Assembly (NCBI GenBank): GCA_964518305.1
Contig: CAZFDK010000006.1
Location: forward strand, 22,618 to 86,617
From: an uncultured Gemmatimonadota bacterium
Lineage (GTDB): Bacteria; Gemmatimonadota; Gemmatimonadetes; Palauibacterales; Palauibacteraceae
Reading direction: 5' to 3'
DNA: 64,000 nucleotides
This document shows positions 1-27,726 of the stretch, piece by piece (the stretch's first letter is position 1; each line of letters begins with the position of its first letter). Position numbers and translations under genes: made by a program. Below the pieces are notes generated by a model. That model was not told the DNA's origin. It saw only the letters and a program-made list of their open reading frames with translations, and did not search any database.

Positions 1-397
1 ACAGTCCCTCCAGAAAGCCGTATCCTCGGCCGTGCTGGAAGAGGGCCAGGTACAGGATGGCGCAGTTCGTCGTGATCAGCGGCAGGAAGACTCCCAGCTG
101 CCGGAAGAGCGTCGGGCTCACCTTCTTGACCGTGATCTCCACGATCTGCACCAGCGAAGCGATGATCACGATGTAGGAGATGAGACGCAGGTAGGGGGCG
201 GCGGGCAGCACGTAGGCGTTCAGAAATGAGGTCGCCAGCGAGGTGATGGTCATCACGAAGATCACCGCGCCGCCCATCCGTATGGCCGTGGACACGCGGT
301 TGGAGACGCCGAAGAACGGGCACAGGCCCACGAAGTAGGCCAGCACGAAGTTGTTGACCAGCGCTGCCGAGAAGAACACGTACGCCAGGTTTTCCAT
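1..397 (-). CDS. rnfA: Rnf electron-transport complex subunit A (RnfA), 3' end outside the window
   Basis: The reverse translation from the ATG at 395-397 reads MENLAYVFFSAALVNNFVLAYFVGLCPFFGVSNRVSTAIRMG..., a typical RnfA/NqrE-type polytopic N-terminus. The ATG overlaps the rnfE stop (ATGA). This gene is not in the ORF track because it runs off the window edge. Confidence 0.9.
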   Translation of the reverse strand, partial: MENLAYVFFSAALVNNFVLAYFVGLCPFFGVSNRVSTAIRMGGAVIFVMTITSLATSFLNAYVLPAAPYLRLISYIVIIASLVQIVEITVKKVSPTLFRQLGVFLPLITTNCAILYLALFQHGRGYGFLEGL

Positions 398-1104
398 CAG
401 CTGCTCCCCTCTCCGCCCGGCACCTTCTCCCGCGCCGGCTCCTCGGTGCGAACCCCCTGCGGCCACCGGCGCGGCTGGACCGCCTCCTCGGACTCCTCGC
501 CCCGTTCGGCCCACCAGCTCACGCCGAGCAGGACGATGCCCAGGGTGAAGAAGCCGCCGGGCGGAAGAATCATGATCACCCACGGCTCCCAGGAGCCGGG
601 CATCACCTGCGCCCCCATCAGGGTGCCGCTGCCCAGGAGCTCACGGACCCCGCCCATCAGCAGGAGGGCGATCCAGAACCCGGCGGAGGTGCCCAGGGCG
701 TCGAGGACGGAGAGGCCCAGGGGGTTCTCGGACGCGAAAGCCTCCTGGCGGCCCAGGATCATGCAGTTCACGACGATCAGCGGCACGAACGCCCCGAGGG
801 CGCGCGAGGCCGACGGCGCCACCGCCCCCATGGCCAGGTCGACGATGGTCACGAACGTGGCGATGACCAGGATGAAGGTGGAGATCCGCACCTGCTCCGG
901 GACCCAGCCCTTGATCAGGGAGACGAGGGTGCTGGAGCCCACCAGCACGAAGGTGGTCGCCGCGCTCATGGCGATGGCGTTCTGCACGGTGTTGGTCACC
1001 GCCAGGGCGGGGCAGAGACCCAGGAGCTGGATGAGCACCGGGTTCTCCTCCCACACGCCCCGGAGGAAGACCTCTCCCGGCTCCTTCTCCCTCATCGGGC
1101 TCAT
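397..1104 (-). CDS. rnfE: Rnf complex subunit E (RnfE)
   Basis: 235-aa polytopic protein with GVWEENPVLIQLLGLCPALAVT and IVVNCMILGR motifs typical of RnfE/NqrD. ATGA overlaps link it to rnfG upstream and rnfA downstream. Confidence 0.9.
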   Translation of the reverse strand: MSPMREKEPGEVFLRGVWEENPVLIQLLGLCPALAVTNTVQNAIAMSAATTFVLVGSSTLVSLIKGWVPEQVRISTFILVIATFVTIVDLAMGAVAPSASRALGAFVPLIVVNCMILGRQEAFASENPLGLSVLDALGTSAGFWIALLLMGGVRELLGSGTLMGAQVMPGSWEPWVIMILPPGGFFTLGIVLLGVSWWAERGEESEEAVQPRRWPQGVRTEEPAREKVPGGEGSS

Positions 1105-1856
1105 GGCGATCCTCCCGTCCGGTCCCCGTCTCCGCCGGCGCCGGCCGGGCCGGACTTACCGGTGGACGGCGCGGGCAGGCCGGCCTTCGCCTCCTCGCGG
1201 AGCGTCGCACCGACGGCGCTGAGCTGCTCGTTGATGATCTCGATGACGGTCTCCGACGAGATCGTGGCGCCCGTGATCATGTCGACCTGGCCGGGGTCGT
1301 CGCCGCCCTCCTTCACTCCCTCCAGCGGAGGACGGATCCCCTCGAACTCGCTGATGAAGCTGCTGTCGGAGGTGATCTTGGCTCCGAGCCCCGGCGTCTC
1401 CTTGCTCTCCAGCACCGTCATGCCCATGACGCGGTCCTCGCGGGGATCGTAGCCGAAGATCAGCCGCACCACGTCCTGGTAGCCGGGCTTCTCGCCCGCC
1501 ACCGCGAATCCTGCCAGCCGTCCGCCATCGAACCCGGCGTAGACGGTCTTCGCGGCGGCCGAGTCCACGCCGGACGGCAGGCTGTCGAGGAGCTGGCCGT
1601 CGACCACGTGCATGGCCCGGTAGGTTTCCGGGCCGCCGAGGACCTGCTGGACGGCCGACCGCAGGCGCTCCGCCCGGTGGGAGACGATCTTCGGGTGAGC
1701 CCACTGGTAGACGAAGACGATGGCGAAGCCCGCCATCACCGCGGCAATTCCCAGCGTCACGATCAGCCTCCACGGCGCGGGCTGCCGGTTCTCCGGCGAC
1801 GGTCCGCTCTCCCCGTCTCCGTTCCCGTCGCCCACGGGCAACTCGCGCTCGCTCAT
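1101..1856 (-). CDS. rnfG: Rnf complex subunit G (RnfG, FMN-binding)
   Basis: Only the C-terminal 251 aa of track ORF 1101..2789 look real. They have a single N-terminal TM (WRLIVTLGIAAVMAGFAIVFVY) and the FMN-attachment region VDMITGATISSETV (SGAT-like). The ATG at 1854-1856 overlaps the rnfD stop (ATGA). Confidence 0.85.
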   Translation of the reverse strand: MSERELPVGDGNGDGESGPSPENRQPAPWRLIVTLGIAAVMAGFAIVFVYQWAHPKIVSHRAERLRSAVQQVLGGPETYRAMHVVDGQLLDSLPSGVDSAAAKTVYAGFDGGRLAGFAVAGEKPGYQDVVRLIFGYDPREDRVMGMTVLESKETPGLGAKITSDSSFISEFEGIRPPLEGVKEGGDDPGQVDMITGATISSETVIEIINEQLSAVGATLREEAKAGLPAPSTGKSGPAGAGGDGDRTGGSP

Positions 1857-2941
1857 CCGGATCCCCCCTCCGCCGCCCGCGCCCCGAAGGGCGTGGGCAG
1901 GGTGACCCGGTCCAGGAACGGGACCAGGGCGTTCATGAACAGGATCGCGTACATGATCCCCTCGGGCAGGCCGCCCCAGATGCGGATCAGGACCGTGATC
2001 ACACCGATCCCGATGCCGAACAGCCAGACGCCGCTGGCCGTCACCGGGGACGTGACCATGTCGGTGGCCATGTAGACGGCGCCCAGGATCAGGCCTCCGG
2101 AGAAGATCATGAACAGCGGGCCCGGATAGGCGGCGGGGTCGATCAGGTGCAGGACGCCGGAGAAGGCGGCGACCGTGGCGAAGATGCTCACCGGTATGCG
2201 CCAGTCCAGGTAGTTCTTGAGGGCCAGGTAGCCGCCGCAGATCAGGATGACGAGGCCGGCGGTCTCGCCCAGGGAGCCGCCGGTGTTGCCGATGAGCAGG
2301 CGTCCGACCTCGGTGATCTCCCCCTCGAACTTCATCAGCCCCAGGGGCGTCGCCGCGGTGGCCGCGTCGATCTCGGGAGGCTGCAGGAGGGGCAGGGCGA
2401 GGTTCGACTGGTAGACGGTGGCCCGGCCGACGCCCACGGCCGGCCACGTGGTGATGGCCGTGGGGAAGGAGGCCTGGAGGAACGCCCGTCCCAGGAGCGC
2501 CGGGTTGAAGACGTTCTGGCCCAGCCCGCCGAAGATCAGCTTGCCGAACCCCAGGCCGAAGGCGCCCCCGAGAGCGGCCATCCACAGCGGGATGCTGGCG
2601 GGGAGCGTGAGCCCGAGGAGGACGCCGGTGATGACCGCCGATCCGTCGGAGACGGCGTCCAGGTCCTCGAAGGCCCACTCCGTGGCCACGGCCCCGACGG
2701 TTGCGGCCGAGATCACGAGGAGCGCCGAGAGGCCGAAGAACCAGGCGGCGGCGCCCACCACCGGGACCAGGGTCGCCGCCACGGTCCACATGATCCGCGG
2801 CGTGGAGTCCGGGGACTGGATGTGGGGAGACGGCGCGATGCGGAGGGCGGCGCCGGAATCATCCGGCCGCCGGTCCGCGTGCCCCGATGCGCGTCCCCGG
2901 GCCCGTCCGGAGGACCCTCGGCCCCCTCCGCCCGGGGTCAC
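1853..2941 (-). CDS. rnfD: Rnf complex subunit D (RnfD)
   Basis: The real part of track ORF 1853..3991 includes the SPHI motif near the N-terminus, GLGQNVFNPALLGRAF, and the TGATPL-like ATPLGL region. The proposed GTG start at 2939-2941 overlaps the rnfC TGA (GTGA). No ATG lies upstream of the conserved SPHI. Confidence 0.88.
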   Translation of the reverse strand: MTPGGGGRGSSGRARGRASGHADRRPDDSGAALRIAPSPHIQSPDSTPRIMWTVAATLVPVVGAAAWFFGLSALLVISAATVGAVATEWAFEDLDAVSDGSAVITGVLLGLTLPASIPLWMAALGGAFGLGFGKLIFGGLGQNVFNPALLGRAFLQASFPTAITTWPAVGVGRATVYQSNLALPLLQPPEIDAATAATPLGLMKFEGEITEVGRLLIGNTGGSLGETAGLVILICGGYLALKNYLDWRIPVSIFATVAAFSGVLHLIDPAAYPGPLFMIFSGGLILGAVYMATDMVTSPVTASGVWLFGIGIGVITVLIRIWGGLPEGIMYAILFMNALVPFLDRVTLPTPFGARAAEGGSG

Positions 2942-4356
2942 GCCGCGTCCTTTTCCGGGCCCCCGTCCCCGGACCCGGTCCCGTCGGCCGACTCCTCCGG
3001 CTCGTCCTCGGCCTCCTCCGCCAGGCGGCGGAGCCGGCGGACCTGGTTCTTGCCCGCGGCGATGAGCTGGGTGAGGGGGATGTTGGAAGGGCAGACGTAC
3101 GCGCAGCTCCCGCACAGCATGCAGTCGTCGAGGTCGAGCTCCGTCATCTCCTCGAACTGACCGGCCCGTGAGAAGAGTCCGAGGTCGGCCGGGTCGAGGA
3201 ACACCGGGCAGGCCTCGAGGCAGCGCCCGCACCGGATGCAGGGATACTCCGGCCCGGTGGCGGCCGCGTCCGAGGTGAGGATGACGATTCCGGTGGTCCC
3301 CTTGAGGATCGGGGTGTCCAGGTCGGCCTGGGCGTTGCCCATCATCGGGCCACCGAAGACCACGCGCTCGGCGTCCTGCGTGAGGCCGCCGCAGAACTCG
3401 ATGGCATCGGCGATCCGGGTGCCCACCGGGACGGTGAGATTGGACGGGCGGCGGATTCCGGGGCCGGTGACCGTGACGATCCGCTCCACCAGCGGGTAGC
3501 CGGTCTCGAACACCTGGGCGATGGTGGAGATCGAGCCCACGTTCTGAACCACTACCCCGACCTCCAGGGGCAGGCCGCCGGAGGGGACCTCCCGGTCGAG
3601 GATCGACTTGATCATCATCTTCTCGGCGCCCTGCGGGTACTTGGCCCGTAGGGAGACGACGGAGATGTCCAGGTCGCTCGGGATCGTCTGGCGGAGCTCC
3701 TCGATTGCGTCGGGCTTGTTCTCCTCCACGCCGATCACCGCCCGCTCCACGTCCAGGGCGTGCATCATCACGCGGAGTCCGAAGTGCACCCGGTCCGGGT
3801 GCTCCACCATGGTCCGGTGGTCGCCGGTCAGGTACGGCTCGCACTCGGCCCCGTTGGCGATGATCGTGTCGATCTCGGCGTCCTCCGGGGGCGAGAGCTT
3901 GACGTGGGTGGGGAAGGCGGCCCCGCCCAGGCCCACCACGCCGGCGTCCTTCACGGCGCCTGCCACCTCGCCGGCTTCCAGCTCCTTCCACTCGGGTACG
4001 ATCCGGGGCCGCGGCACCTGCGGATCATGGGGATCGACGTCGACGATCACCGCCTCCTGCATCGATCCGTCGGGATGCGGCCAGCGTCGGATGTCGCGGA
4101 CCGTACCGGCGGCCGAGGCGTGGATGGGGGAGGAGATGAAGCCCCGGGCCTCGCCGATCTTGTCGCCCCGCTGCACCCGGTCGCCTTTCTCCACCAGCGG
4201 ACGGGCCGCCTCGCCCGCGTGCTGCTTCAGCGGCAGGGCCAGTCGGTCCGGGAAGGGCATGCGGCGGATCGCCTCGCCGGAGGTGAGATCCTTCAGGTCC
4301 GGGGGGTGGACCCCGTGCCTGAAGCCGGAGCCGACGTCCAGGTCGAAGAGGCTCAC
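2938..4356 (-). CDS. rnfC: Rnf complex subunit C (RnfC; NADH-binding, 2x[4Fe-4S])
   Basis: Motifs include VVGLGGAAFPTHVKL, ANGAECEPYLTGDHR, and two ferredoxin motifs (CIRCGRCLEACP and CMLCGSCAYVCP). I prefer the GTG at 4354-4356, which overlaps the upstream stop (GTGA), over the track ATG at 4383, which would overlap the upstream gene by 31 nt. Confidence 0.9.
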   Translation of the reverse strand: MSLFDLDVGSGFRHGVHPPDLKDLTSGEAIRRMPFPDRLALPLKQHAGEAARPLVEKGDRVQRGDKIGEARGFISSPIHASAAGTVRDIRRWPHPDGSMQEAVIVDVDPHDPQVPRPRIVPEWKELEAGEVAGAVKDAGVVGLGGAAFPTHVKLSPPEDAEIDTIIANGAECEPYLTGDHRTMVEHPDRVHFGLRVMMHALDVERAVIGVEENKPDAIEELRQTIPSDLDISVVSLRAKYPQGAEKMMIKSILDREVPSGGLPLEVGVVVQNVGSISTIAQVFETGYPLVERIVTVTGPGIRRPSNLTVPVGTRIADAIEFCGGLTQDAERVVFGGPMMGNAQADLDTPILKGTTGIVILTSDAAATGPEYPCIRCGRCLEACPVFLDPADLGLFSRAGQFEEMTELDLDDCMLCGSCAYVCPSNIPLTQLIAAGKNQVRRLRRLAEEAEDEPEESADGTGSGDGGPEKDAA

Positions 4357-7300
4357 TGGAACGGCTCCGCCCGCTCGATCCACTCCTCCAGATCCGGCTC
4401 GTCCGGATCCATGGGATCACCGGGATGGATGATGGCGGCAGTGCACTTCTCGGCCGCCTTCACCAGCTCTCTGAACGTGCCCGCCTCCGGGTCCTTGATG
4501 TAGGCCTGCTTGTCGTCGTCATAGGCGAACATGTCGTCGTTGATGTCGATGCACTCGTCGCAGGTGGTGCACCGGGCGGTCTCGATGTAGGGCTCGCGGC
4601 GGATCGTCTGCTCTTTCGCCGCGTCCGCCGCCTCCGCTTCGTCCGCGGCATCCTCCGCCGCCGCTTCTTCCTCCACGGCGGTCTTCTCGGCAGGGGGCGC
4701 CGCGGTGGCGGTTCCACCGCCCGCCGGCCCGCTCTCGGACCCGGCCGTGCCGGCGCCCGACCCATTTCCGCCCGGGCCGGCCTCCTCGACGTCGATGAGC
4801 TCCAGGTTCGGGGTGCTCTCCGCCTCCTCCAGCAGGTCCCCCACAGTCCGGTCGCGGTCCACCGACCGGACCAGCCCCTCGGCCATGCGCCGCGCCACCT
4901 TCCGGGCGTAGTCCCGCTTGAATTGCGCGAGCTCCTCGTCGTAGCGGGACTCGAGCTCCTCCTGCCGGGCCTCCAACTCCTGCTCCAGCTCGGAGCGGAT
5001 CTCGTCGCGCACCGACTCCGGGACCTCGAGACCCGCCAGCTCCCGCAGCTGCGACCAGAAGGAGAGACGCTCCTCGGCCAGCTCGACCATCTCCTCCGAG
5101 GCGGCCAGCCGCGAGATCCGATCAACCCCGTCCAGCGAGTAGACGAAGGGAGTGGCGTCGGCCCGCCCCTCCTCGTCCAGGTCCACGTACTCGTGGAAGA
5201 GAACGAGCTTCTCGCCGTCGGGACCCTCCGGCGCCCGGCCCTCGTCGTCGGGGAGCGGCAGCTCGGCCCTCCCCAGGTCGCGGAAGTGCCTCCCGAACCG
5301 GCCCTCGGTGGCCGCCCAGTCGGCGATCGTCATGGGCAGCTCCAGGGTCCGCGTCTCGTCGCCCTCCGGGGAGCGGTACTCCAGCTCGTAGGTGGGCCAC
5401 CGCTCGTCCACCGAGGGGTTGCCCTCGAGGCTCAGGCAGTCGGCGATGGAGTCGCCGGCGTCGGGATCGTAGGTGAAGTGGGGGAAGGCGCGGCTCTCCA
5501 GGGCGAGGCGCGCGGCCTCGGGCGCCCACTCGTCCGGCGTCCCGTGCTCCACGGGGCAGGGGGTGTGGATGTTGAAGATCGCCGGGCGGCGCTTCCTGAG
5601 GCCCTTCAGCACGCCCTCCAGCATGTGGGAGGCCGTGGCCTGGGAGCTCTGGAGCACGTACGCGCCGCGGTGGGCCAGGGCGATCAGCCCCAGCTCCTTG
5701 CGCGTCTCTTCCTTGCCGTGCTGGGCCTCGCCGTACTCCGCCATGTCGGAGACCTGGCCCAGGAAGCCGCTCGTGCACGCCTGGCCGCCGGTGTTCGAGT
5801 AGACCTGGGTGTCCAGCACGAGCACCCGGATCGGCTTCCCGGAGGCCAGGAGCCGCGAGAGGTTCTGGTGGCCGATGTCCAGCATGGCGCCGTCTCCGCC
5901 GACGACGAGCATCGGGGGACAGAGCTCGAACTCCTCGTCGGTGAGGTCGCGCCACCCCAGGTTTCGGAGCCGTGTCCCGTCCTCGCCGGGGTCGTACTCG
6001 TCTTCGAGGATCAGCTCCGCGCGGCGGACGTTGGCGAAGTCGTCCGCCATGTCCCGCATGTGGCCCTCGAAGATGCCGATGGCCACGGACGGGGCGTCCT
6101 GGAAGAGGTGGTTCACCCAGGGCACCGGGTACGGATTGTACGGGTAGGTGCTGCCCCAGACGGAGGAGCAGCCCGTGCTGTTGGCGATCCCGAGCTCGGC
6201 GCGGCCCCGACCGCTGGGTCCCTCCACGTAGCGCCAGCGGAGGTCCCGCAGGTCCTCGAGGGTGTCGGCGATGCGCCGCAGCCGCTCCTTCTTGCCCGGC
6301 TCCAGCTCGACGTCGACGGTGTCGTCCCCGGAGATGGCCGCCAGGTCGACCTCGACGTCTTCGGAGACCATCTCCCGGGCCTCGCGGTCCAGCGCCTCGA
6401 TCAGCTCGTCCAGCTTCTCGACGAAGTCCTCGACCCGGGACTGCATGGCGGCCGTGACGGCCGACACCACGAGGTGGACCGTGGTCTTCTCGCCGCAGCC
6501 CATGCAGGCCCCGTCCCCGCCCACCATGGAGCGATAGACGTCCTTCTTGAGGAGCAGGGAGGGAAGGACGCCGATCCCACGGTCCACGTCCACGACGTTG
6601 ATGTACCGGTCGTCGGTGTCCGGGAGCTCCTCCCACAGATCCCAGTTGCGGCGGAGCTCCTCGACCGTCTCCTCGTCCTGCTGCACCGTGCGCAGGGCGT
6701 CGTCCGGGCAGACCTCCACGCAGATGTTGCAGCCCTTGCATGCCTCCGGGTCCACCGTGATGGAGAGGAGCCCGCCCGTGCCGTCCTCGCGTGACTCGGG
6801 GACCTCCCAGAAGGGCGAGGTCTTCGCCACGGGAAAGTCCTCGAGCACAGAGTGAACGGCCGCGAAGTCCCGGTCGAGCTCCGCTTTCCGCTCCGGTGCC
6901 CAGTCCAGCTTCGGCGTCAGGTTCTCGTACGCCGTCCGCACCGTGTCGCCGAAGTCCTCCACGGGGGTGGCCTCAACCACGCTGCGGATCTCCCGGGCCA
7001 GGTGCTTCGACACCTGCCGGAGGCGGTCCAGCGAGCGGTCGCCGCGGGAGGCTACGCGGATGGCGGAGTCCAGGATCTGCTCCGGCGTGTTGACCAGGCC
7101 GGGAATGGCGCTGTCCGGACACTGCGTCCAGCACTTGCTGCACCCGGTGCAGTTCTCGGGAACGAACTCCGGCACCTCGAGGCGGATGCTCGTCATGTCC
7201 TTGATGGCGCTCGAGGCCGCCGGGATGGCGCTGAGGGCCGCGAAGGGGTCCGCCACCGGGTCCTCGCCGCCCTCGTACAGGGAGCACACCTGGCCGAAGA

Positions 7301-9563
7301 AGCGCCCGGGGTCGGCCACGCCGGGCTCGGCGTCCACGCGCATCTCCGTCGGAATCTCCGCCATGGGGAGCGGCTGGCCCGGGGCGTCCGCGCGCTCGTC
7401 CTCGGGCACCGGCACCGGGCGGACCTCATCGTAGCCGCGCTGAATGACCCGCACGTTGTCCTCGACGACCTCGTCTCCCAGGTAGCCGAACTTACGCTCC
7501 ATCCGGGCGCGGATGCCCCCGAAGAGCGTCTCCTCGTCCAGTCCAAGGTTCTCCATCAGGGGGGAGACGGCGAAGAAGGCCCCCATGAAGGCCCCGCCCT
7601 GCATCCGATAGCGGAGGCTGGGGTCGGAGGCCTCGTCGGCGGCGATTCGAAAGCCGTCCAGGGCGTAGACCTGAATGTCCCGGTCGCGGATCTCGCGACG
7701 GGCGCGGTCGGGGAGTTCGTCCCACAGCTCCGCCGGCGGCCGATCGCTCTGGATCACGAAGGCGCCTCCGTCCTCGAGGCCGTGGAGCGGATCCGACGTG
7801 CCGAACACGTTCGGGTCCGGCGAGAGCACGGCGTCGACGTGCTTGAGCTCGGCGTTGATCCGGACCGGGTCCGGCGAGAGCGTGGCGAAGAAGGTCGTGG
7901 GCTGTCCCTTCTTCTCCGACCCGTACTTGGGATTGGCCTTGATGTGCAGCCCGGCCAGCTCGAAGGCGGTCATCGCCAGGTTCTTGCCCGTGGTCATCGC
8001 CCCCCATCCGCCCACGGAGTGAATGCGGAGGGAGACCGAGTCGTCGGGCATCAGGTCCAGGTCGCCGGCGGAATCCAGGGCCAGGTCCGTCAGCTCCGGA
8101 TAGTCGTCCAGCAGTTCCTCCTGCTGCACCTGGAGCTTCGGATAGCGGGTGTCCTCCCGGACGAAGTCGACGCCCAGGTAGTACTGGCGCCGGCCGTCGC
8201 CGTCGTCGAGCATGTTCTCCACCGCCGCCACCAGGTCGCCGGGCTGGAGGTCCCGGCTGCCCATGCCGAAGGCGGCGGAGTAGAGCTCCGGAGTCTCACC
8301 GTCGCCGATCGGTGTGACACCGGGGTGGGGGAGCGGGCTGTCGCTCTCCGCGGGAAGCGGATAGCGGGGGTGCGCCGAGTGCCCGTCGGCCCGCCCGTTC
8401 TCCCGCCCCTTGGAGAGGGCCGTCCGAATCTCGCGAAGCAGCGGGGCGTCGGAAGCCAGCGGCTGGTCCAGCCGCTCCAGCACCGTCACGCCCTCCTTGC
8501 CGCGCAGGAGCCGGGTCACCCGGTCCGAGGGGAAGGGACGGAACATGGTCATGTTGAGCACGCCGACCTTCAGCCCCCGCTCCTCACGCAGGTAGTCCGC
8601 GGTTGCCTGGGCGTTGCCCACCACGGTGCCCTGTCCCACGAGCACGTAGTCGGCGTCGTCCAGCCGGTACCCCGAGGCCCGCTCGTACCGCCGGCCCGTG
8701 AGACGCGCGTACTCCTCCATCGCCCGTTCCGTCAGCTCCCGGACGTGGCCGAAGTAGAAGGGTCGCTGGGCGGCCACTCCCTGCGCGTAGGAGTCCTGGT
8801 TCTGGACGGAGCCGAGCAACGCCGGATAGTCGAAGTCGTAGAGGACGGGGATCCTGCGGCGCCGGTCGCCGAACACCTTCCGCTGCGCCGGGGTGGGGGC
8901 GTCGATCATGTCCGACGGGTCGCCGAGGTAGGCCCGCACGAGTTCGGGCCCCGGCAGGAGCAGGGACTCGATCACGTGGGTGCTCAGGAACCCGTCCTGG
9001 GCCATTACGCCCGGGTTCAGCGCCAGCTCGGCGATGCGGTGGGCGATCAGGTTCAGGTCCGCCGCCTCCTGGACGTTCTTCGCGAAGAGCTGGAAGAACC
9101 CGGTGTCGTCGATGGCGTGGTAGTCGTCGTGGCCGGCATGGATGTTCAGCGCCTGCTTGGTCATGGCCCGGCAGGCCATGTTCAGCACGTACGGCAGGCG
9201 CTTGCCGGCGGCCGCGTACAGGGACTCATGCATGTACGCGATGCCCTGGCTGCCCGAGAAGTTCGCGGCCCGGAGCCCGGACATGCTCATTCCCGCCGTC
9301 ACGCCGGCCGCGGCGTGCTCGCCCTCGGGCTCGAAGAAGAGCAGCTCCCGGCCGAATGCGTTCTTCTTCCCGCGGGCGGCGGCGCTGGACCATCCTTCGC
9401 CCATGTCCGTGGCGGGGGTGATGGGATACGCGCCGGCGGCCTCGCTGGCCTCGGTCTCCACCGAGGCGACGGCCTCGCTGCCGTCCATGGCCACGGTCTC
9501 CCCGGGGAAGGGCGGTCCGTCGGCCTCGTCGCGCTCGCGGTCGTGTTTCTCGGACGGGGTCAT
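4353..9563 (-). CDS. Giant fused 2-oxoacid:ferredoxin oxidoreductase (PFOR/NifJ-like, 1736 aa) with a C-terminal coiled-coil, flexible linker and single-cluster ferredoxin domain
   Basis: PFOR domain order can be read directly. It has N-terminal YPITPATDM and a gamma-like SVGGWGAMTTGKNL...KYGSEKKG region. Two motifs follow, CTGCSKCWTQCP and CKGCNICVEVCP. The TPP domain carries GDGACMGCGEKT and GGDGAMLDIGHQNL...SNTGGQ. The C-terminal ~330 aa are extra: a heptad-like charged segment, an Ala/Gly/Glu linker, then CTTCDEC...EKCTAAIIHPG. Confidence 0.9.
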   Translation of the reverse strand: MTPSEKHDRERDEADGPPFPGETVAMDGSEAVASVETEASEAAGAYPITPATDMGEGWSSAAARGKKNAFGRELLFFEPEGEHAAAGVTAGMSMSGLRAANFSGSQGIAYMHESLYAAAGKRLPYVLNMACRAMTKQALNIHAGHDDYHAIDDTGFFQLFAKNVQEAADLNLIAHRIAELALNPGVMAQDGFLSTHVIESLLLPGPELVRAYLGDPSDMIDAPTPAQRKVFGDRRRRIPVLYDFDYPALLGSVQNQDSYAQGVAAQRPFYFGHVRELTERAMEEYARLTGRRYERASGYRLDDADYVLVGQGTVVGNAQATADYLREERGLKVGVLNMTMFRPFPSDRVTRLLRGKEGVTVLERLDQPLASDAPLLREIRTALSKGRENGRADGHSAHPRYPLPAESDSPLPHPGVTPIGDGETPELYSAAFGMGSRDLQPGDLVAAVENMLDDGDGRRQYYLGVDFVREDTRYPKLQVQQEELLDDYPELTDLALDSAGDLDLMPDDSVSLRIHSVGGWGAMTTGKNLAMTAFELAGLHIKANPKYGSEKKGQPTTFFATLSPDPVRINAELKHVDAVLSPDPNVFGTSDPLHGLEDGGAFVIQSDRPPAELWDELPDRARREIRDRDIQVYALDGFRIAADEASDPSLRYRMQGGAFMGAFFAVSPLMENLGLDEETLFGGIRARMERKFGYLGDEVVEDNVRVIQRGYDEVRPVPVPEDERADAPGQPLPMAEIPTEMRVDAEPGVADPGRFFGQVCSLYEGGEDPVADPFAALSAIPAASSAIKDMTSIRLEVPEFVPENCTGCSKCWTQCPDSAIPGLVNTPEQILDSAIRVASRGDRSLDRLRQVSKHLAREIRSVVEATPVEDFGDTVRTAYENLTPKLDWAPERKAELDRDFAAVHSVLEDFPVAKTSPFWEVPESREDGTGGLLSITVDPEACKGCNICVEVCPDDALRTVQQDEETVEELRRNWDLWEELPDTDDRYINVVDVDRGIGVLPSLLLKKDVYRSMVGGDGACMGCGEKTTVHLVVSAVTAAMQSRVEDFVEKLDELIEALDREAREMVSEDVEVDLAAISGDDTVDVELEPGKKERLRRIADTLEDLRDLRWRYVEGPSGRGRAELGIANSTGCSSVWGSTYPYNPYPVPWVNHLFQDAPSVAIGIFEGHMRDMADDFANVRRAELILEDEYDPGEDGTRLRNLGWRDLTDEEFELCPPMLVVGGDGAMLDIGHQNLSRLLASGKPIRVLVLDTQVYSNTGGQACTSGFLGQVSDMAEYGEAQHGKEETRKELGLIALAHRGAYVLQSSQATASHMLEGVLKGLRKRRPAIFNIHTPCPVEHGTPDEWAPEAARLALESRAFPHFTYDPDAGDSIADCLSLEGNPSVDERWPTYELEYRSPEGDETRTLELPMTIADWAATEGRFGRHFRDLGRAELPLPDDEGRAPEGPDGEKLVLFHEYVDLDEEGRADATPFVYSLDGVDRISRLAASEEMVELAEERLSFWSQLRELAGLEVPESVRDEIRSELEQELEARQEELESRYDEELAQFKRDYARKVARRMAEGLVRSVDRDRTVGDLLEEAESTPNLELIDVEEAGPGGNGSGAGTAGSESGPAGGGTATAAPPAEKTAVEEEAAAEDAADEAEAADAAKEQTIRREPYIETARCTTCDECIDINDDMFAYDDDKQAYIKDPEAGTFRELVKAAEKCTAAIIHPGDPMDPDEPDLEEWIERAEPFQ

Positions 9564-9564
9564 G

Positions 9565-10455
9565 TCACCTCACTCCTGTCGCTTCTTCCGTCGCTGCTCC
9601 GGCCGCCGGCTGTCGCTCGTCCTCCGGCCGCTCTCCCTCGGAGAACTGGGCGCCGTCCACCCAGCCCAGGGCGTCGGTCGGGCAGCTTCCGGTGAGCCCG
9701 GGCTCCGCCAGCTCGTTCTTCTCGTAATCGATGACGGCCAGCCCGTCCTCCATGGTGATCAGGTCGTCGGGCGCGTCCCGGGCGCACCGGGCGCAGCCGT
9801 CGCAGGCCACCGCGCAGACGGCGGTGGCCGAGTCGCCTTCGAGCAGGCTCCGGCACTCGACGATCAGCTTCTGCTCCGTGGGCATGATGGTGAACAGGTC
9901 CAGCGGGCAGGCCTCGACGCAGTCCTCGCACGCCGTGCACAGCTCGGGATCGACCACCGGGAGGTCGTTCTCGTTCATCCGGATCGCGTCGAAGTCGCAG
10001 GCCACGGCGCAGTCCCCCAGGCCGACGCAGCCCCAGGGGCAGGCCTTGCCGCCGCCGGTCACCGCCACCGCGGCGGCGCAGCTCTCCGCGCCCTCGTAGT
10101 CGACCTTCCGGGGGGCCACGTCCGAGCCCCCCTTGCAGAGGAGCCGGGCCACCCGGTCCCGCGCCTCGCCGGCCTCGAGCTCCAGCTCCGCGGCCAGGAG
10201 CTCCCGCTCCTCCGCGGACATGTTGGTGCAGTCGGCCGGGTCCACCTCGCCCTCGACCAGGGCCTCCGCGAACGCGCGGCAGCCGGGCTCGCCACAGGCG
10301 CCGCAGTCGGTGCCGGGGAGCATATCCTCGGCCTCGTCGATTCGCGGGTCCTCCCAGACCCAGAACACCCGGTTCACCACGGCGATGGCGGTACCCAGGA
10401 CGAAACCGATGCCTCCCAGGATGCTCGCGGGGAGGAAGATCGACGTCAGCTCCAC
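9565..10455 (-). CDS. rnfB: Rnf complex subunit B (RnfB; membrane-anchored polyferredoxin)
   Basis: It has an N-terminal TM helix (ILGGIGFVLGTAIAVV) and an RnfB-type Cys cluster (DCGACGEPGCRAFAEAL...ADC). Downstream are CPWGCVGLGDCAVAC and CTACEDCVEACP 4Fe-4S motifs. The start is GTG, with GGAGG 6 nt upstream. Confidence 0.85.
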   Translation of the reverse strand: MELTSIFLPASILGGIGFVLGTAIAVVNRVFWVWEDPRIDEAEDMLPGTDCGACGEPGCRAFAEALVEGEVDPADCTNMSAEERELLAAELELEAGEARDRVARLLCKGGSDVAPRKVDYEGAESCAAAVAVTGGGKACPWGCVGLGDCAVACDFDAIRMNENDLPVVDPELCTACEDCVEACPLDLFTIMPTEQKLIVECRSLLEGDSATAVCAVACDGCARCARDAPDDLITMEDGLAVIDYEKNELAEPGLTGSCPTDALGWVDGAQFSEGERPEDERQPAAGAATEEATGVR

Positions 10456-10509: not shown

Positions 10510-11532
10510 TCAGCCCTCCAGGTCCTCGAGGCCGGACTGGCGGAGGAGCCAGCCGGCCAGGCGGTCCGCCGGGTCGGCCTCCTCGGCCTCGTGGCCGGGA
10601 GGACCTCCGTTCTCCGAGGCGTCGGCGACATCGGCTGCCAGCGCCAGGGCGCGGAGCTGGGCGAGCTCCTCGGCCTGCTGGCTCCGGGTGGCAGAGCCCA
10701 CCGGGCGCAGGTGGTCCTCTTCGGGCAGGTGCTCCACGGAGAGCCGCGCGGAGAGGGACGCCTCGGACACGGGACGGTGGACGAAGCGCGCCGCGCTCTC
10801 GGCTCCCCCGGGCACGAGCGCTGCCACCCCCGGTCCGTCGTGCGCCCGGAGGGGGGCGAGGTCGTCCGGGTCGTCCGACTGGACGACCAGGGTGCCCGGG
10901 GTGATCAGGCGGACCAGGGGAGCCGCGGGGGACTGACCCTCCACCACCAGCACGAGCTTGAGGCTGCCGTCCATGACCTCGGCCAGCCCACCCGGCCGGA
11001 GTGCTTCGCCCGGGAGGCGGATCACCAGCGGCGGCGCGACCCGGCGCTCCTGCGCGTTCCACATGGCCGGGGGGAAGTCCTCCAGGTAGCCGGCGTGTGC
11101 GTCCTGCCGGAAGCGGCCCGATCGCGCCAGCTCCACGGTTCGTGCCGCGCCGAAGGCCCGCCCCGCGCGGGCCAGGGCGGCCGCGGCCTCGTCCCGGAGG
11201 TCGTCGTCGGCCCCGAGGTCCAGGCGGAAGAGCTCCTCGCCGGAGCGGTGGACCTCCTGCAGGACTTCGCGGGCCCGCTCCACCAGATCGACGGTCCCGG
11301 GATCCAGTCCGCCGGTCTCCTCCAGGACGCTGGCGAAGCGCTCCGGATCGATCCGTCCCTCGGCCAGCTGGCCCAAGGAGGAATCCCGTCGGCGCTCGTC
11401 CCCCGCGGGTACGCGCTGCTCCTCCAGGAGGCCTCCGACCTCGTCCACGGCTCCGGCGACGGCCGACCGGAACGCCTCGCGGTCCTCGGCCACGGCTTCG
11501 AGCGCTCGCTGCACCCGATCGTCAGACGGCAT
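10510..11532 (-). CDS. Hypothetical protein (340 aa, acidic, Cys-free) embedded between korB and rnfB
   Basis: The ORF has non-repetitive, coding-like composition and high GC3. Its ATG overlaps the korB stop region by 11 nt. I recognise no family motif. Confidence 0.6.
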   Translation of the reverse strand: MPSDDRVQRALEAVAEDREAFRSAVAGAVDEVGGLLEEQRVPAGDERRRDSSLGQLAEGRIDPERFASVLEETGGLDPGTVDLVERAREVLQEVHRSGEELFRLDLGADDDLRDEAAAALARAGRAFGAARTVELARSGRFRQDAHAGYLEDFPPAMWNAQERRVAPPLVIRLPGEALRPGGLAEVMDGSLKLVLVVEGQSPAAPLVRLITPGTLVVQSDDPDDLAPLRAHDGPGVAALVPGGAESAARFVHRPVSEASLSARLSVEHLPEEDHLRPVGSATRSQQAEELAQLRALALAADVADASENGGPPGHEAEEADPADRLAGWLLRQSGLEDLEG

Positions 11533-12490
11533 GGCGGTCCAGCTCCTCCTCCAGGGTCTCCACTCTCTCCTCGGCCGATCGGCGGGGCACCGATCGGATC
11601 TGGTCGTAGGCCGGGCGGGACTCGTCCCGGAAGTAGACGCCGAGTCGGATCCGTTCCCGGTCCTCCCCCTCCTCCTCGGCCAGCCGCCGGGCGAAGTCCA
11701 GGTCGCCCGGCTCGTGCCGGCGCTGGTGCTCGTAGATCTCCGAGAGTCCGCCCTCGGCCTCCACGCCGTCCGGGTGCACCAGCAGCTCGATCCGGTCCGG
11801 GTCCCGGACGGCGTCCAGGAACATCTCCTCGGTGTAGTGGGGGCAGCGCTGGAGGATGCGGACGAAGGCGAAGCCCTCGTGGTGGTAGGCGGCCTCCAGG
11901 GTAGCGTCGAGGTGCTGGGGCACCCATTCGGCCGTCTGCGCCACGAAGGACACGTTGCTCACCCCGAGGGTGGCGGTGAGCGGGTTCATGGCGGGGAGGA
12001 AGGTTCCCTGGGGCTGAGTGTTGGTCTGGTAGCCCCGGGGCGTGGTGGGGGAGGTCTGCTTCTTCGTCAGGCCGTAGATGTGGTTGTCGAACATCATGGC
12101 GACCATGTCCGTGTTGTAGCGGGTCGCGTGGATCCAGTGCCCGGCGCCGATGGAGACGCAGTCGCCGTCCCCCATCACGGCGAAGACGTCCAGGTCCGGC
12201 CGGTGGAGCTTGACGCCGGTGGCCACGGGCAGGGCGCGCCCGTGGATGGCGTGAAAGCCGTAGGTGTCGATGTGATGCGGGAAGCGGCCGGAGCAGCCGA
12301 TGCCCGACACCACCACCGTCTCCTCGGGGGCGATCTGCTCGTTCTTGAGGAGCCGCTCGGTGGCGGCCAGAATCGAGTGGTCACCGCATCCGGGGCACCA
12401 CCGGGCCTGCGGCCCTTCGTAGTCCTCCATCTCGAGGACCTGGTCCTGCTCCCGGGCTCGCCGGAGCAGGGAGCATCCTTGCGTTCTCAT
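11522..12490 (-). CDS. korB: 2-oxoglutarate/2-oxoacid:ferredoxin oxidoreductase, beta subunit (KorB-type, TPP-binding)
   Basis: This is the real C-terminal part of track ORF 11522..14293. Motifs are WCPGCGDH, SGIGCSGRF, GDGDCVSIGAGH and YGLTKKQTSPTT. The ATG at 12488-12490 overlaps the korA stop (ATGA). Confidence 0.9.
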   Translation of the reverse strand: MRTQGCSLLRRAREQDQVLEMEDYEGPQARWCPGCGDHSILAATERLLKNEQIAPEETVVVSGIGCSGRFPHHIDTYGFHAIHGRALPVATGVKLHRPDLDVFAVMGDGDCVSIGAGHWIHATRYNTDMVAMMFDNHIYGLTKKQTSPTTPRGYQTNTQPQGTFLPAMNPLTATLGVSNVSFVAQTAEWVPQHLDATLEAAYHHEGFAFVRILQRCPHYTEEMFLDAVRDPDRIELLVHPDGVEAEGGLSEIYEHQRRHEPGDLDFARRLAEEEGEDRERIRLGVYFRDESRPAYDQIRSVPRRSAEERVETLEEELDRHAV

Positions 12491-14418
12491 CCGTTTCCTC
12501 CGTCCGTGGCGGCTCGGGACTCGTCGAGAAGGCGGTCGCGAATCGCCCCGTGGACCTGCATGGGGCGGAGCGGCTCCGTGAGCACTTTGCTCCAGCTGTC
12601 CACGTCGACCAGCGTCGTGGAGCGGAGCAGGGTCGCGAGCTGTCCCCGCCGGCGGTTCTCCTCTGTGATGTAGGGGTCGTCGACGTCGTCGCTGTAGTTG
12701 ATCTCGGCCGTCATCACCCGATCGAAGCGGTCGAAGATCTCGCCGAGCCCCGGCGGGAGGGGCGAGAGGAAGGTCAGGTGCAGCGAGGAGACCGAGAGGC
12801 CCTCCTCGCGGGCCCGGTCCACGGCCTCCTCGATGGCCCCCTTCGTGCTCCCCCACCCGACGACCAGGAGATCGCCCGAGTCGTCGCCGTGGACCTCGGG
12901 CGGCGTCAGGGTGCTCTGGAGGACGGCCAGCTTGCGGCTCCGCATCTCGGAGGCGTGCTGGTTCAGGTCGTAGTCGTAGGCGACGACGCTCTCCTCGTCG
13001 TGGGCGAGTCCCGTGGCGGAGAACTGACCGCCGGACTGGCCCGGCACGAAGCGCTGGGACAGGCCCGTCCGCTCGTTCCAGTCGTAGGGCGGCTTGTCCT
13101 CCGGTACCGGGCTCTGATCGGGCGGGGTCCCCTGCCAGGCGGTCTCCGGTTCCGGCCGGGGGAACGGCTGCACGCCGCGACCCAGGTTCGCGTCGGAGAG
13201 GATCATGACCACGGCCCGGAAGGTCTCGGCGATGCGGCGGGCGGTGATCATCGCGTGGAAGCAGTCCTCGATGGTGGCCGGGGCGATCACCACGTGGGGC
13301 GCGTCGCCCGGCTGTCCGTACAGGGCCGCCAGGAGGTCGGACTGCTCCACGCGGGTGGGAAGGCCCGTGCTCGGCCCGCCGCGCTGCACGTCGACCAGGA
13401 CCAGCGGCGTCTCCGTCATGATGGCCAGGCCCAGGAACTCGGTCTTCAGCGCCACTCCCGGTCCGGACGTGAAGGTGACGGCGGGCTTGCCGGAGAAGGA
13501 GGCTCCGACCGCGACGCCGGCCGCGGCGATTTCGTCCTCCGCCTGATGGAGGGTCCCACCGTAGTCCTCGAAGATCCGCCCCAGGTAGTGGGAGATGGAC
13601 GACGCCGGCGTGATGGGATACATGGAGGCCAGCTCGAACCCGGCGGCCACCGTCCCGAGCGCCACCGCCTGGTTGCCGTTCATCACCACCTTCTCGCCTT
13701 CGTCGGCAGTGGGCGGGACCTCGATCCGGAAGGGCAGGTTCTCCTCGGCCCACTCGAGGCCGCGATGGAGGAGGGCGACGTTGCTCTCGGTGATGGTGTC
13801 CGCTTTGTGGGCGAACTTCCGGGCGATGGCGTCTTCGATGAGGTCGACGTCCCGCTCGTAGGCGTGGGCCAGGAGGCCGAGGACGAACATGTTCTTGCCC
13901 TTCCGGGGGTCCTCGACCACCTCGAGGCACTCCTCCTCCATGGGAACCCGGACGATCCGGTAGTCGGACTCCGACAGCTCCTCCATGGCGGCGTCCCACT
14001 CCTCCCGCACCTCCTCGTCGTCGTGGTCCGCCCACATGTCCTCGATGAGGATCGTGGCGTCCTCGGCCAGCACGCCGAGGCGGTGACGGGACAGGAGGAC
14101 CTGCTCGTTGAAGGCCACCACGAGGTCGCTGTAGTCCCCCCAGTTGGTGACCTCCTCCGAGCCCAGCCGGATGCGGTTGCCGGAAGCGCCGGCGGGAGTT
14201 CGGGCGGGGGGCTCGATCTCGGCGGGGATGATCTCCACGGACCAGACGCCGTTGCCCATGCGGGCTGAGACGGTTCCGAAGATGCGCCCGCACGTCTGGG
14301 CGCCTTCCCCGGAGTCGGAGACGACCTCCACCGTATGGTGATCGGTGCGGAGCGTCTCCCCCTCGGTGAGTACGGACGCGGAGTCGGCAGACCGGGAGGT
14401 GGTCGAGTGAGGTGTCAT
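12487..14418 (-). CDS. korA: 2-oxoglutarate/2-oxoacid:ferredoxin oxidoreductase, alpha subunit (KorA-type, fused gamma+alpha)
   Basis: Motifs are GEGAQTCG (gamma-like), NGNQAVALG, and YPITPASSI...DEIAAAGVAVGASFSGKPAVTFTSGPG. I chose the internal ATG at 14418 (MTPHSTT...). The 48-aa track extension upstream is low quality. Confidence 0.9.
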   Translation of the reverse strand: MTPHSTTSRSADSASVLTEGETLRTDHHTVEVVSDSGEGAQTCGRIFGTVSARMGNGVWSVEIIPAEIEPPARTPAGASGNRIRLGSEEVTNWGDYSDLVVAFNEQVLLSRHRLGVLAEDATILIEDMWADHDDEEVREEWDAAMEELSESDYRIVRVPMEEECLEVVEDPRKGKNMFVLGLLAHAYERDVDLIEDAIARKFAHKADTITESNVALLHRGLEWAEENLPFRIEVPPTADEGEKVVMNGNQAVALGTVAAGFELASMYPITPASSISHYLGRIFEDYGGTLHQAEDEIAAAGVAVGASFSGKPAVTFTSGPGVALKTEFLGLAIMTETPLVLVDVQRGGPSTGLPTRVEQSDLLAALYGQPGDAPHVVIAPATIEDCFHAMITARRIAETFRAVVMILSDANLGRGVQPFPRPEPETAWQGTPPDQSPVPEDKPPYDWNERTGLSQRFVPGQSGGQFSATGLAHDEESVVAYDYDLNQHASEMRSRKLAVLQSTLTPPEVHGDDSGDLLVVGWGSTKGAIEEAVDRAREEGLSVSSLHLTFLSPLPPGLGEIFDRFDRVMTAEINYSDDVDDPYITEENRRRGQLATLLRSTTLVDVDSWSKVLTEPLRPMQVHGAIRDRLLDESRAATDGGNG

Positions 14419-14675
14419 GGCCGTACCTCTTCTATGGATGGGCCGGGCCGTTCTCAGCCCGTCACGCCACAACTTCTTGGGGTGTCCACGCAGCGGCTGT
14501 CCGCAGGTTTCCGTACAGGAGCGTGGGGCAGGAGCGTAGAGGAGAGTGGGGACATTCCCCACACTCAGGGGCCCGGGCTCGTTCGCGAGAGTCCGGCGGA
14601 CGCTCCATTTTGGGCGCCGAGATCGTCCGTGAACCCGATCCGTCGACCCCGATCCCCGGGAGGACGCCCGTCACC

Positions 14676-15848
14676 GTGACCGACCCCGAGGCGTACGTCG
14701 ATCCGGAGGACACCCTCCGTCTCCTCCGCGACCTGGTCCGCATCGACTCGGTCAACCCCCGGCTCGTCGACGGCGCCGCCGGGGAGGCGGAGGTCGCGGC
14801 CTACGTGGCCGGCGAGCTCCGGGACGCCGGCCTGGAAGTCGAGACCAGGGAGGCGACGCCGGGTCGGGTCTCCGTGGTGGGCCGCCTCCGGGGAGAGATG
14901 GGGCCCGGCCCCTCGTTCATGCTCAACGCCCACACGGACACGGTGGGGGTGGCGGGCATGGACGATCCCTTCTCGGCCGACGTCCGGGACGGTCGCCTGC
15001 ACGGACGCGGCGCGTACGACATGAAGGGCGGGCTGGCCGCGTGCATGGCGGCGGCGAAGGCCCTGGCGGCGGCCGATGCGCCCTTCCCGGGCGAGCTGCT
15101 GGTGGCCGCGGTGGCCGACGAGGAGCACAGCAGCGTGGGAACCGCCGACGTGCTCACCGATTACAGCGCCGACGCCGCGGTGGTCACCGAGCCCACGGAG
15201 CTCGACCTGTGCACGGCTCACAAGGGCTTCGCGTGGCTGGAGGTGGAGACCGCGGGGCGTGCCGCCCACGGCAGCCGGTTCGAGGTCGGGCGCGACGCGA
15301 ACATGCGCATGGGTCGGGTGCTGTCGGAGCTGGAGCAGCTGGAGCGGGAGGTGCGGTCTCGCGAGCCCCACCCGCTGCTCGGCCCGCCGTCGCTGCACGC
15401 TCCGCTCCTGCGGGGAGGGAAGGGGATCAGCACCTACGCGGACCGCTGCACGCTCCGGATCGAGCGGCGGACGGTGCCCGGCGAGACCGGGGACCAGGTG
15501 GCCGGCGAGGTGGACGCGATCCTGGAGGAGCTGCGGGAGGCGCCCGATTTCGAGGCCAGCCTGGCCACGCTCCTCGTTCGGAACCCCTTCGAGGTCGACG
15601 CCGACGCCGGCGTGGTCCGCGCCCTCGAGGACGCCTCGGAGCGAGTACTCGGGAGCACCCCGGAGCACGTGGGGGAGAATCCCTGGATGGACTCCGCGCT
15701 GCTGGCCGACGCCGGTATCGAGACGGCGGTGATGGGCCCCCGTGGTAGCGGCGCCCACGCCGACGAGGAGTGGGTCGAGGTGGAGTCAGTCGTCGACCTG
15801 GCGCGGATCCTCTCCGTCGCCGCGGCCGGCTACCTGGGCAGGGACTGA
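14676..15848 (+). CDS. M20 family metallopeptidase (ArgE/DapE/ACY1/YgeY-like amidohydrolase)
   Basis: Motifs are NAHTDTVGV, GRGAYDMKGG and ADEEHSS, plus the C-terminal GPRGSGAHADEEWV. The start is uncertain: GTG at 14676 or TTG at 14610. The track N-terminus from 14412 is spurious. Confidence 0.8.
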   Translation: MTDPEAYVDPEDTLRLLRDLVRIDSVNPRLVDGAAGEAEVAAYVAGELRDAGLEVETREATPGRVSVVGRLRGEMGPGPSFMLNAHTDTVGVAGMDDPFSADVRDGRLHGRGAYDMKGGLAACMAAAKALAAADAPFPGELLVAAVADEEHSSVGTADVLTDYSADAAVVTEPTELDLCTAHKGFAWLEVETAGRAAHGSRFEVGRDANMRMGRVLSELEQLEREVRSREPHPLLGPPSLHAPLLRGGKGISTYADRCTLRIERRTVPGETGDQVAGEVDAILEELREAPDFEASLATLLVRNPFEVDADAGVVRALEDASERVLGSTPEHVGENPWMDSALLADAGIETAVMGPRGSGAHADEEWVEVESVVDLARILSVAAAGYLGRD

Positions 15849-15864
15849 GGGGGACCGCGCGAGC

Positions 15865-27397: not shown

Positions 27398-27726
27398 GCG
27401 GGCTGGAGCTCCGGGGACTCGGGCGTCGAATCGGGGGCGCGCGGGTGTCGATCGCGGCGTCGAACGTGGCTCCGGTCGGTGCAATCCCCGTTCCGGCTGA
27501 GCCCGCCGATCGACGTCGACGCCCCGGGCGTCGAGCGGGGGGAGGGACGGCGGGGGCCTCCACCCCACGTTTCCGTACGAGGCCGTGGGGCCGCAGGACG
27601 GCGACGGAGCTCCCCGTTTTGCCCCCCGGCTCGAGGCCCTAGCATGTAGCGCAGGCGGGCGGCCCGCCGCCCCCCCGCCGCCGGTCGACGGCGGCGCGAG
27701 AGCCGTCTCCGCACAGGGAGGCACCC

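Follow-up and report, generated by a model that had tools for sequence, protein, structure and literature searches.

A PFOR-type 2-oxoacid:ferredoxin oxidoreductase with a tethered C-terminal ferredoxin is encoded between rnfB and rnfC in Gemmatimonadota

Homodimeric single-chain pyruvate:ferredoxin oxidoreductases (PFORs) of the NifJ/YdbK type (TIGR02176) have been solved from Desulfovibrio (1231-1232 amino acids; 1b0p of D. africanus) and from M. thermoacetica (1171 amino acids; 6cin). A longer relative is the pyruvate:NADP+ oxidoreductase (PNO) of Euglena and Cryptosporidium, a PFOR of ~1800 amino acids with a C-terminally fused electron acceptor. In the Methylococcus CYP51-ferredoxin and other self-sufficient P450s, a ferredoxin partner is tethered at the C-terminus by a low-complexity, Ala-rich linker. 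Rnf is normally described with a freely diffusing ferredoxin, and its physiological donor is often unidentified, especially in aerobes; the rnf clusters of Methanosarcina acetivorans and Desulfovibrio include cytochrome c genes as a dedicated redox partner. We know of no example among PNO, the P450-ferredoxin fusions and the cytochrome-bearing rnf clusters that unites a PFOR, a tethered [4Fe-4S] ferredoxin and an rnf operon. Here we describe a gene (defined as “X”) that brings these together, from a 64,000-nucleotide stretch of an uncultured Gemmatimonadota genome (contig CAZFDK010000006.1, positions 22,618 to 86,617). We refer to this whole stretch as the window, and coordinates are counted from its first letter.

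X (4353..9563) is an open reading frame (ORF) of 1736 codons with an ATG start on the minus strand. An earlier note made from the sequence gave the same coordinates and length and left the strand unstated; it also put characterised homodimeric PFORs at about 1170-1230 amino acids, in agreement with the 1171-1232 of the solved enzymes. The best PDB match of X, by sequence (6cin, E = 2.5e-89) and by fold, is a homodimeric PFOR. The two share domain order, the spacing of the thiamine pyrophosphate (TPP) motifs, the Thr and Arg ligands and the 12 cluster cysteines. Pfam and a colinear alignment to 6cin place the domains of X in the single-chain PFOR order I-II-III-V-VI, all on the minus strand: domain I (POR_N, amino acids 39-214; 8922..9449), domain II (PFOR_II, 304-386; 8406..8654), domain III (POR, the gamma-like, coenzyme A-binding region, 518-712; 7428..8012), the two-cluster ferredoxin-like domain V (798-957; 6693..7172, with Fer4 matches at about amino acids 798-816 and 935-957) and the TPP-binding core of domain VI (1217-1370; 5454..5915, with TPP_enzyme_C at 1217-1330).

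The motifs expected of an active enzyme are present. In domain I, the alignment and a motif audit recovered the Thr of YPITP (amino acids 46-50), the activating Glu in GEHAAAG and the substrate Arg in MACRAM. Domain VI carries GGDGAMLDIG (1222-1231; 5871-5900) and SNTGGQ (1256-1261; 5781-5798), spaced as in 1b0p and 6cin. All twelve Cys ligands of three [4Fe-4S] clusters align with those of PFOR. Eight lie in the two CxxCxxCxxxCP motifs of domain V (Cys 805/808/811/815 at 7116-7151 and 942/945/948/952 at 6705-6740), and four (1020/1023/1132/1336) belong to the TPP-proximal cluster. Of these four, the first two are in GDGACMGCGE (amino acids 1016-1025; 6489..6518), the third in NSTGCSS (6162-6182) and the fourth in HTPCPVEHG (5541-5567). 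We collected 120 full-length homologues from NCBI, ENA, JGI and Logan assemblies (60-91% identity, 1665-1782 amino acids except for a single truncated sequence of 1536). Among named relatives, those of Candidatus Palauibacterales are closest, at 91% identity. Of the 120 Gemmatimonadota proteins, 119 retain YPITP, GDG, SNTGGQ and the Cys motifs of the clusters, and column identity in the catalytic domains is 0.85-0.94, which argues for purifying selection on catalysis. X is thus apparently an intact single-chain PFOR-type 2-oxoacid:ferredoxin oxidoreductase (OFOR) that probably acts on pyruvate or another small 2-oxoacid.

In contrast to homodimeric PFORs, X is encoded inside an rnf operon and has ~500 additional residues, made up of three insertions within the PFOR body, an added C-terminal module, a linker and a ferredoxin. 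The terminal domain (amino acids 1656-1736; 4356..4598) has the ligand pattern of a single-cluster [4Fe-4S] ferredoxin, C1665-x2-C1668-x2-C1671 followed by C1707, and its PDB sequence match is Fd I of D. africanus (1dax, E = 1.2e-4). AlphaFold2 (AF2) models it at a predicted local distance difference test (pLDDT) score above 90. Foldseek matched the model to 1fxr with a TM score of 0.86 and a root-mean-square deviation of 1.5 Å over 62 columns, followed by ferredoxins of P. furiosus, B. thermoproteolyticus, T. maritima and D. gigas; small ferredoxins make up seven of the top nine matches. Fer4_13 was detected in all 23 aligned family members (E <= 1e-3 throughout, best 1.8e-8) and scores 25.7-40.6 bits in distant relatives. 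The window copy matches it weakly (amino acids 1661-1713), with 24.3 bits for the isolated domain and 21.6 bits for the full protein against a gathering score of 24.5. Its fourth ligand is followed by Thr (EKCTAAIIHPG, amino acids 1703-1715; 4419-4457, minus strand), as in some relatives, its closest ones among them (P0002, P0004, P0006, P0009, P0010 and P0057), where most homologues have Cys-Pro.

The linker (amino acids 1594-1652, ~59 residues; 4608..4784) is rich in Ala, Gly, Pro and Glu and is predicted to be disordered (pLDDT < 50). Its length in the 120 homologues ranges from 34 to 100 amino acids (median 57), with A+G+P+E at 64%. Column identity falls to 0.24 over amino acids 1601-1640, compared with 0.6-0.8 in the flanking domains and 0.82 in the terminal domain. 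The earlier note had proposed a Thermotoga/Pyrococcus-type ferredoxin on a flexible tether, and both the fold, to which Desulfovibrio-type ferredoxins can be added, and the tether are supported by these results. The domain shares its fold and CxxCxxC...C pattern with D. africanus Fd I and the P. furiosus and T. maritima ferredoxins (Fer4_13/Fer4_15). Unlike them, it is not free-standing but joined to its reductase, and it ends in a conserved C-terminal tail, IIHPG.P.[ND]P.E..L..W..RA.PF[NQ].

The placement of X between rnfB and rnfC, reported in the earlier note, is borne out by Pfam, NCBIfam and the gene junctions. On the minus strand the order is korA-korB-Y′-rnfB-X-rnfC-rnfD-rnfG-rnfE-rnfA, so that all six Rnf subunit genes adjoin X, as they do in relatives. 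The rnfB gene (9565..10455) encodes a polyferredoxin-type subunit (Pfam FeS and Fer4; TIGR01944, 80.8 bits, above the 68.7 cutoff) and stops 1 nucleotide before the ATG of X. The TGA of X overlaps the GTG start of rnfC (2938..4356; TIGR01945, 513.6 bits) in the sequence GTGA. Downstream are rnfD (1853..2935; PF03116, E = 1e-94), the start codon of which is not fixed (the Pfam match begins at the position equivalent to 2791), rnfG (1101..1856; FMN_bind by Pfam), rnfE (397..1104; PF02508, E = 1.6e-63) and rnfA (1..394; PF02508, E = 2.9e-39), which is cut by the window start.

The earlier note did not include KorAB, which heads the same operon. The korA-like gene (12487..14421, start approximate) encodes an alpha subunit with gamma and alpha fused (Pfam POR, POR_N and PFOR_II; TIGR03710, 511.9 bits, above 482.75). 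The korB-like gene (11522..12430, start uncertain, placed by frame analysis) encodes a beta subunit with an intact TPP motif, GDGD..N, and scores 230 bits against TIGR02177, under the 261.9 cutoff. These two genes belong to the two-subunit KorAB class (TIGR03710/TIGR02177) and X lies outside it. KorAB-type enzymes (the alpha-beta class, of Sulfolobus and Mycobacterium types) have no ferredoxin domain. KorAB lacks the two-cluster domain seen in X and would need an external, perhaps tethered, ferredoxin. The third gene, Y′ (10510..11532), encodes a conserved 340-amino acid protein.

To survey this arrangement we searched protein clusters (50% identity) and species-representative genomes with a profile of the C-terminal 366 amino acids of X. 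It matched 2048 clusters, 901 of them with E < 1e-30, and at least 581 species-representative genomes encode relatives of the module. All of the 80 best genome matches are metagenome-assembled genomes (MAGs), nearly all of Gemmatimonadota. Counting, among the best 80 loci, those with enough flanking sequence, rnfB is upstream of X in 50 of 50 and korA-korB-Y′ in 44 of 44; rnfC is downstream in 66 of 69, and the whole rnfCDGE series in 49 of 52. The same order, followed by apbE, is found in a closed Gemmatimonadales MAG chromosome and on a 1.4-Mb contig. Long-form X is common in Gemmatimonadota, with a near-invariant layout. Proteins of the X family are annotated at source as “2-oxoacid:acceptor oxidoreductase family protein,” “pyruvate-ferredoxin/flavodoxin oxidoreductase” or “ferredoxin.” The earlier note had raised the prospect that the long form is a common, already characterised PFOR subclass. 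Common it is, and we found no description of the fusion or the operon in the literature on Gemmatimonadota/Palauibacterales Rnf, on PFOR-ferredoxin fusions and on Rnf with OFORs in Planctomycetes, in Gemmatimonadota genomics papers, or in a 2025 review and a 2014 evolutionary study of Rnf and Na+-translocating NADH:quinone oxidoreductase (NQR).

Given that X lies inside, and is translationally coupled to, the rnf operon together with KorAB and Y′, we propose that it is a catalytically competent electron-input module of Rnf, a reading to which we assign a probability of roughly 55%. Electrons from a 2-oxoacid would pass from the TPP site through the three [4Fe-4S] clusters of X to its own C-terminal ferredoxin, which would swing on the ~59-residue linker and hand them to RnfB, the polyferredoxin subunit. 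With these electrons Rnf would reduce NAD+ and pump Na+ or H+, giving the oxidative decarboxylation of 2-oxoacids one more site of energy coupling. Electrons from KorAB probably reach RnfB through the same ferredoxin. Three observations together suggest this wider service: KorAB is in the operon, Y′ is a decayed paralogue of X, and in other lineages the ferredoxin is found on either paralogue. The channelling of electrons to RnfB suggested in the earlier note thus gains plausibility from synteny, translational coupling and relatives that seem to have lost catalysis. Direct transfer itself is still inferred, as are the substrate, any physical contact between X and Rnf, the partner that accepts electrons from the ferredoxin and the way in which the electrons flow.

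The best case for linking the function of X to Rnf comes from seven distant loci (L004, L005, L086, L087, L088, L089 and L090). In each of them where X could be read it has lost its TPP motifs, yet the ferredoxin and the adjacency to rnfB are kept. Three carry phylum labels, Planctomycetota (P0160, P0152) and Latescibacterota (P0167). Two layouts occur. In type A, found in Gemmatimonadota, L004 and L088, the order is korAB-Y′(~330 amino acids)-rnfB-X(1616-1750 amino acids, with the ferredoxin)-rnfCDGEA. In type B (L086, L087, L089, L090 and partially L005), korAB is followed by a protein Y of ~870 or ~1415 amino acids that carries the ferredoxin, then by rnfB, an X of ~1530 amino acids without the ferredoxin, and rnfC. 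Because the ferredoxin module is on Y, upstream of rnfB, in L005, L086, L087, L089 and L090, it evidently moved between the paralogues X and Y.

YPITP and SNTGGQ are lost in every readable X of the seven loci, GGDG in most copies and the proximal cluster in several. Copies that have lost TPP motifs include the X of L004, L086, L087, L088, L089 and L090, as well as P0160, P0141, P0142 and P0204. Both domain-V cluster motifs are kept in distant X, except in L089, where X is split into ORFs of 343 and 1080 amino acids and no cluster motif is left. The C-terminal module and ferredoxin are always present, on X or Y, the genes are always beside rnfB, and the TPP motif of KorB is kept. Distant-lineage X is thus an apparent pseudoenzyme. 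What the family as a whole conserves is therefore an active KorAB, the tethered ferredoxin, Rnf and, in most cases, a ferredoxin-like domain with two clusters; catalysis by X is outside this set. Two of these loci show further rearrangements. In L088 (3780-7625), the place upstream of rnfB that korAB has in other loci is taken by two DDE transposase genes, with the rnfB-X-rnfCDGEA block intact. In L089 (18342-20075), RnfD and RnfG are apparently fused into a 577-amino acid protein (NQR2_RnfD_RnfE plus FMN_bind).

Many matches to the C-terminal module are proteins of ~820-880 or 1300-1460 amino acids in which Fer4_13 is the sole Pfam domain; the few ~850- and ~1400-amino acid proteins with a source name are called just “ferredoxin.” The ~870-amino acid form aligns with X from about amino acid 724 to 1736 (28% identity over 786 columns, E = 3e-71) and lacks the cluster Cys and the TPP motif. 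Y′ had no Pfam or NCBIfam match, and its BLASTP matches to the ~850-amino acid paralogues were insignificant or marginal (E = 0.77 and 0.019). By hhalign, Y′ matches the central part of these paralogues with a probability of 98.7% (E = 3.2e-16); directly against X the match is weak (X 1030-1460, E = 1.2e-3, probability 19%). It is the profile-profile comparison through the intermediate ~850-amino acid family that is decisive for its paralogy to X. Y′ is thus a further-reduced, decayed paralogue of the C-terminal half of X, a Cys-free remnant of the helical-insertion/TPP-domain region. A likely origin can therefore be assigned to two families without a curated Pfam or NCBIfam model: Y′ (~330 amino acids), and the proteins of ~850 and ~1400 amino acids.

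Several points weigh against an electron-input role for X. The association of X with Rnf or with KorAB is read from synteny and translational coupling, and operon membership can mean co-regulation only. The direction in which Rnf runs is not readable from sequence. X scores 385 bits against the TIGR02176 equivalog cutoff of 911.35, so it is not an equivalog of the characterised enzyme but a divergent PFOR-type OFOR. The window ferredoxin has Cys-Thr at its fourth ligand and falls just under the Fer4_13 gathering score. The AF2 model of domains V-VI has low confidence (pLDDT 62), so how the insertions sit relative to the clusters is provisional.

Other explanations have to be set against this. 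An assembly chimera or a mistaken merger of adjoining genes has the unusual length of the ORF and nothing further to recommend it. The earlier note had raised this worry and it can be dismissed as a negligible risk, because the long form is conserved in the 120 full-length homologues from many independent assemblies, including closed MAG chromosomes, and GC content at third codon positions is uniform (0.94; window GC ~70%). A more substantial alternative is that X is a soluble, self-sufficient PFOR-ferredoxin fusion that is merely co-regulated with Rnf and gives electrons to any partner, without a dedicated complex with RnfB. Its catalytic motifs are all intact, Pfam finds no Rnf subunit-like part or membrane anchor in it, and enzyme-ferredoxin fusions are known elsewhere; the fused ferredoxin would raise the local concentration of acceptor, as in the self-sufficient P450-ferredoxin fusions. 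Against it stands the near-invariant rnfB-X-rnfC placement with overlapping or abutting stop and start codons, and it is hard to see why a free-standing enzyme would leave catalytically dead relatives that keep the ferredoxin, the domain-V clusters and the position in rnf. We therefore regard this alternative as unlikely.

The electrons could also run the other way, with Rnf, the ion gradient and NADH reducing the tethered ferredoxin and X and KorAB acting as pyruvate and 2-oxoglutarate synthases in anaplerotic or autotrophic CO2 fixation. OFORs are reversible, and a tether would help to keep a very low-potential carrier away from O2. Rnf in aerobes such as Azotobacter is described in a review as working in this direction (PMC12174285). 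Set against reversal, the other window genes look like those of amino acid and organic acid catabolism (urocanase, peptidases, a carboxylate symporter), and no marker of the reductive tricarboxylic acid cycle was seen within the window, so we consider it distinctly improbable. Finally, the main role of X, in Gemmatimonadota too, might be to link KorAB to Rnf as an iron-sulfur scaffold or relay, its own TPP chemistry being secondary or vestigial. This would fit the X of other lineages, which has lost its TPP motifs and kept its cluster layout, and the KorAB genes, which are always upstream and look intact. The retention of all catalytic motifs in 119 of 120 Gemmatimonadota homologues and the high column identity of their catalytic domains oppose it strongly enough that we give it very little credence.

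An electron-input module can be taken one step further. X, KorAB, Y′ and RnfABCDGE may form one membrane-bound 2-oxoacid:NAD+ oxidoreductase supercomplex, in which the leashed ferredoxin would be an internal, non-diffusing shuttle; in other phyla the PFOR body would have decayed to a pseudoenzyme with no role beyond that of an iron-sulfur and ferredoxin scaffold for KorAB-to-Rnf transfer. We advance this tentatively, as a possibility that falls short of even odds. If true, the largely aerobic Gemmatimonadota and related lineages would have one more coupling site that pumps ions, at the steps of pyruvate and 2-oxoglutarate oxidation.

The additional regions of X were delimited by piecewise alignment to 6cin and also 1b0p. 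The charged insertion that the earlier note placed between GDGACMGCGE and GGDGAMLDIG is real and adds ~84 residues (insertion 2, amino acids ~1034-1124; 6192..6464). It falls between the second and third Cys ligands of the TPP-proximal cluster (amino acids 1033-1125), is modeled as a long helical hairpin (helices at 254-298 and 320-344 of the modeled sub-sequence), and the region is also kept in the decayed paralogues. The spacing of about 125 residues noted between the domain-V cluster motifs, CTGCSKCWTQCP (amino acids 805-816) and CKGCNICVEVCP (942-953), is exactly 125, ~81 more than in the M. thermoacetica PFOR. AF2 folds this insertion 1 (amino acids ~829-929; 6777..7079) into four helices with pLDDT 74-90, and its column identity among the 120 homologues is 0.63-0.72. 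A further insertion of ~58 amino acids, absent from the earlier note, lies between domains II and III (amino acids ~390-489; 8097..8396; X 389-490 against 6cin chain 352-395). Across the insertions, column identity in the 120 homologues is 0.62-0.76. X is 31 amino acids shorter than 6cin at 1156-1217. The AF2 model of amino acids 770-1380 (domains V-VI) supports the helical insertions at its overall pLDDT of 62, and Foldseek returned PFORs for it. The helical insertions near the clusters might shield them against O2 in largely aerobic hosts or form docking surfaces.

As the earlier note described, a long extension follows the TPP domain: X continues for ~303 amino acids past the C-terminus of the 1171-amino acid M. 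thermoacetica enzyme. In the AF2 model of amino acids 1371-1736, a confident folded module (1371-1593; 4785..5453; pLDDT about 90) extends to ~1590 and consists of a small beta domain and long helices, one of ~50 residues at 1516-1566; the linker and ferredoxin follow. For amino acids 1371-1593 we found no Pfam family and, by Foldseek, no credible PDB fold match.

We also examined the DNA around and opposite X. Two plus-strand ORFs overlap it (4425-6794, 789 amino acids; 6852-9695, 947 amino acids) and were rejected as antisense artefacts of ~70% GC DNA. X is strongly acidic (D+E 18.8%, K+R 10.2%) at about 70% GC, and the acidic composition of X and its neighbours suggests a salt-adapted organism. 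An ApbE flavin-transferase gene lies 3′ of rnfA in L001-L004, sometimes after an ORF of ~50-85 amino acids; the equivalent region here is beyond the window start. Other window genes, on the plus strand (27643-29400, 33407-35056 and 14370-17154), encode urocanase, a Na+/carboxylate symporter, an M20 peptidase and a pyridoxal phosphate enzyme, in keeping with ordinary heterotrophy. No carbon-fixation markers were seen among the window genes.

Set beside the described systems, X resembles PNO in being a PFOR made long by fusion of an acceptor at the C-terminus. The PNO add-on is a cytochrome P450 reductase-like module with flavin mononucleotide (FMN), flavin adenine dinucleotide (FAD) and NADPH, whereas that of X is a [4Fe-4S] ferredoxin on a disordered tether. 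A PNO-type fusion was rejected for X, as Pfam finds no flavodoxin, FAD_binding or NAD_binding domains in it and the C-terminus is a ferredoxin. With the P450-ferredoxin fusions X shares a C-terminal ferredoxin on a low-complexity linker. There the ferredoxin feeds electrons into the enzyme, whereas that of X most likely carries them away toward the membrane complex. As in the cytochrome-bearing rnf clusters, an accessory electron-transfer protein is encoded in or beside the rnf genes. In the X operon, in contrast, that protein is an entire 2-oxoacid oxidoreductase that has its own ferredoxin and is encoded between rnfB and rnfC, and the operon further encodes KorAB and a decayed paralogue.

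Each component is familiar, and the function is deduced. Unexpected are the architecture, how widely it occurs and the series of pseudoenzymes, and these bring the question of what feeds Rnf within reach of a direct test. Hundreds of genomes from an abundant but poorly cultured phylum have a donor enzyme fused to its ferredoxin and set between rnfB and rnfC. If the coupling is true, this would be a hard-wired pathway from 2-oxoacids to Rnf, conserving energy that is wasted by the pyruvate and 2-oxoglutarate dehydrogenase complexes. It would also offer structural biologists a natural “substrate-loaded” Rnf to image and, in sister lineages, a clear case of the decay of an enzyme into an electron-transfer scaffold.

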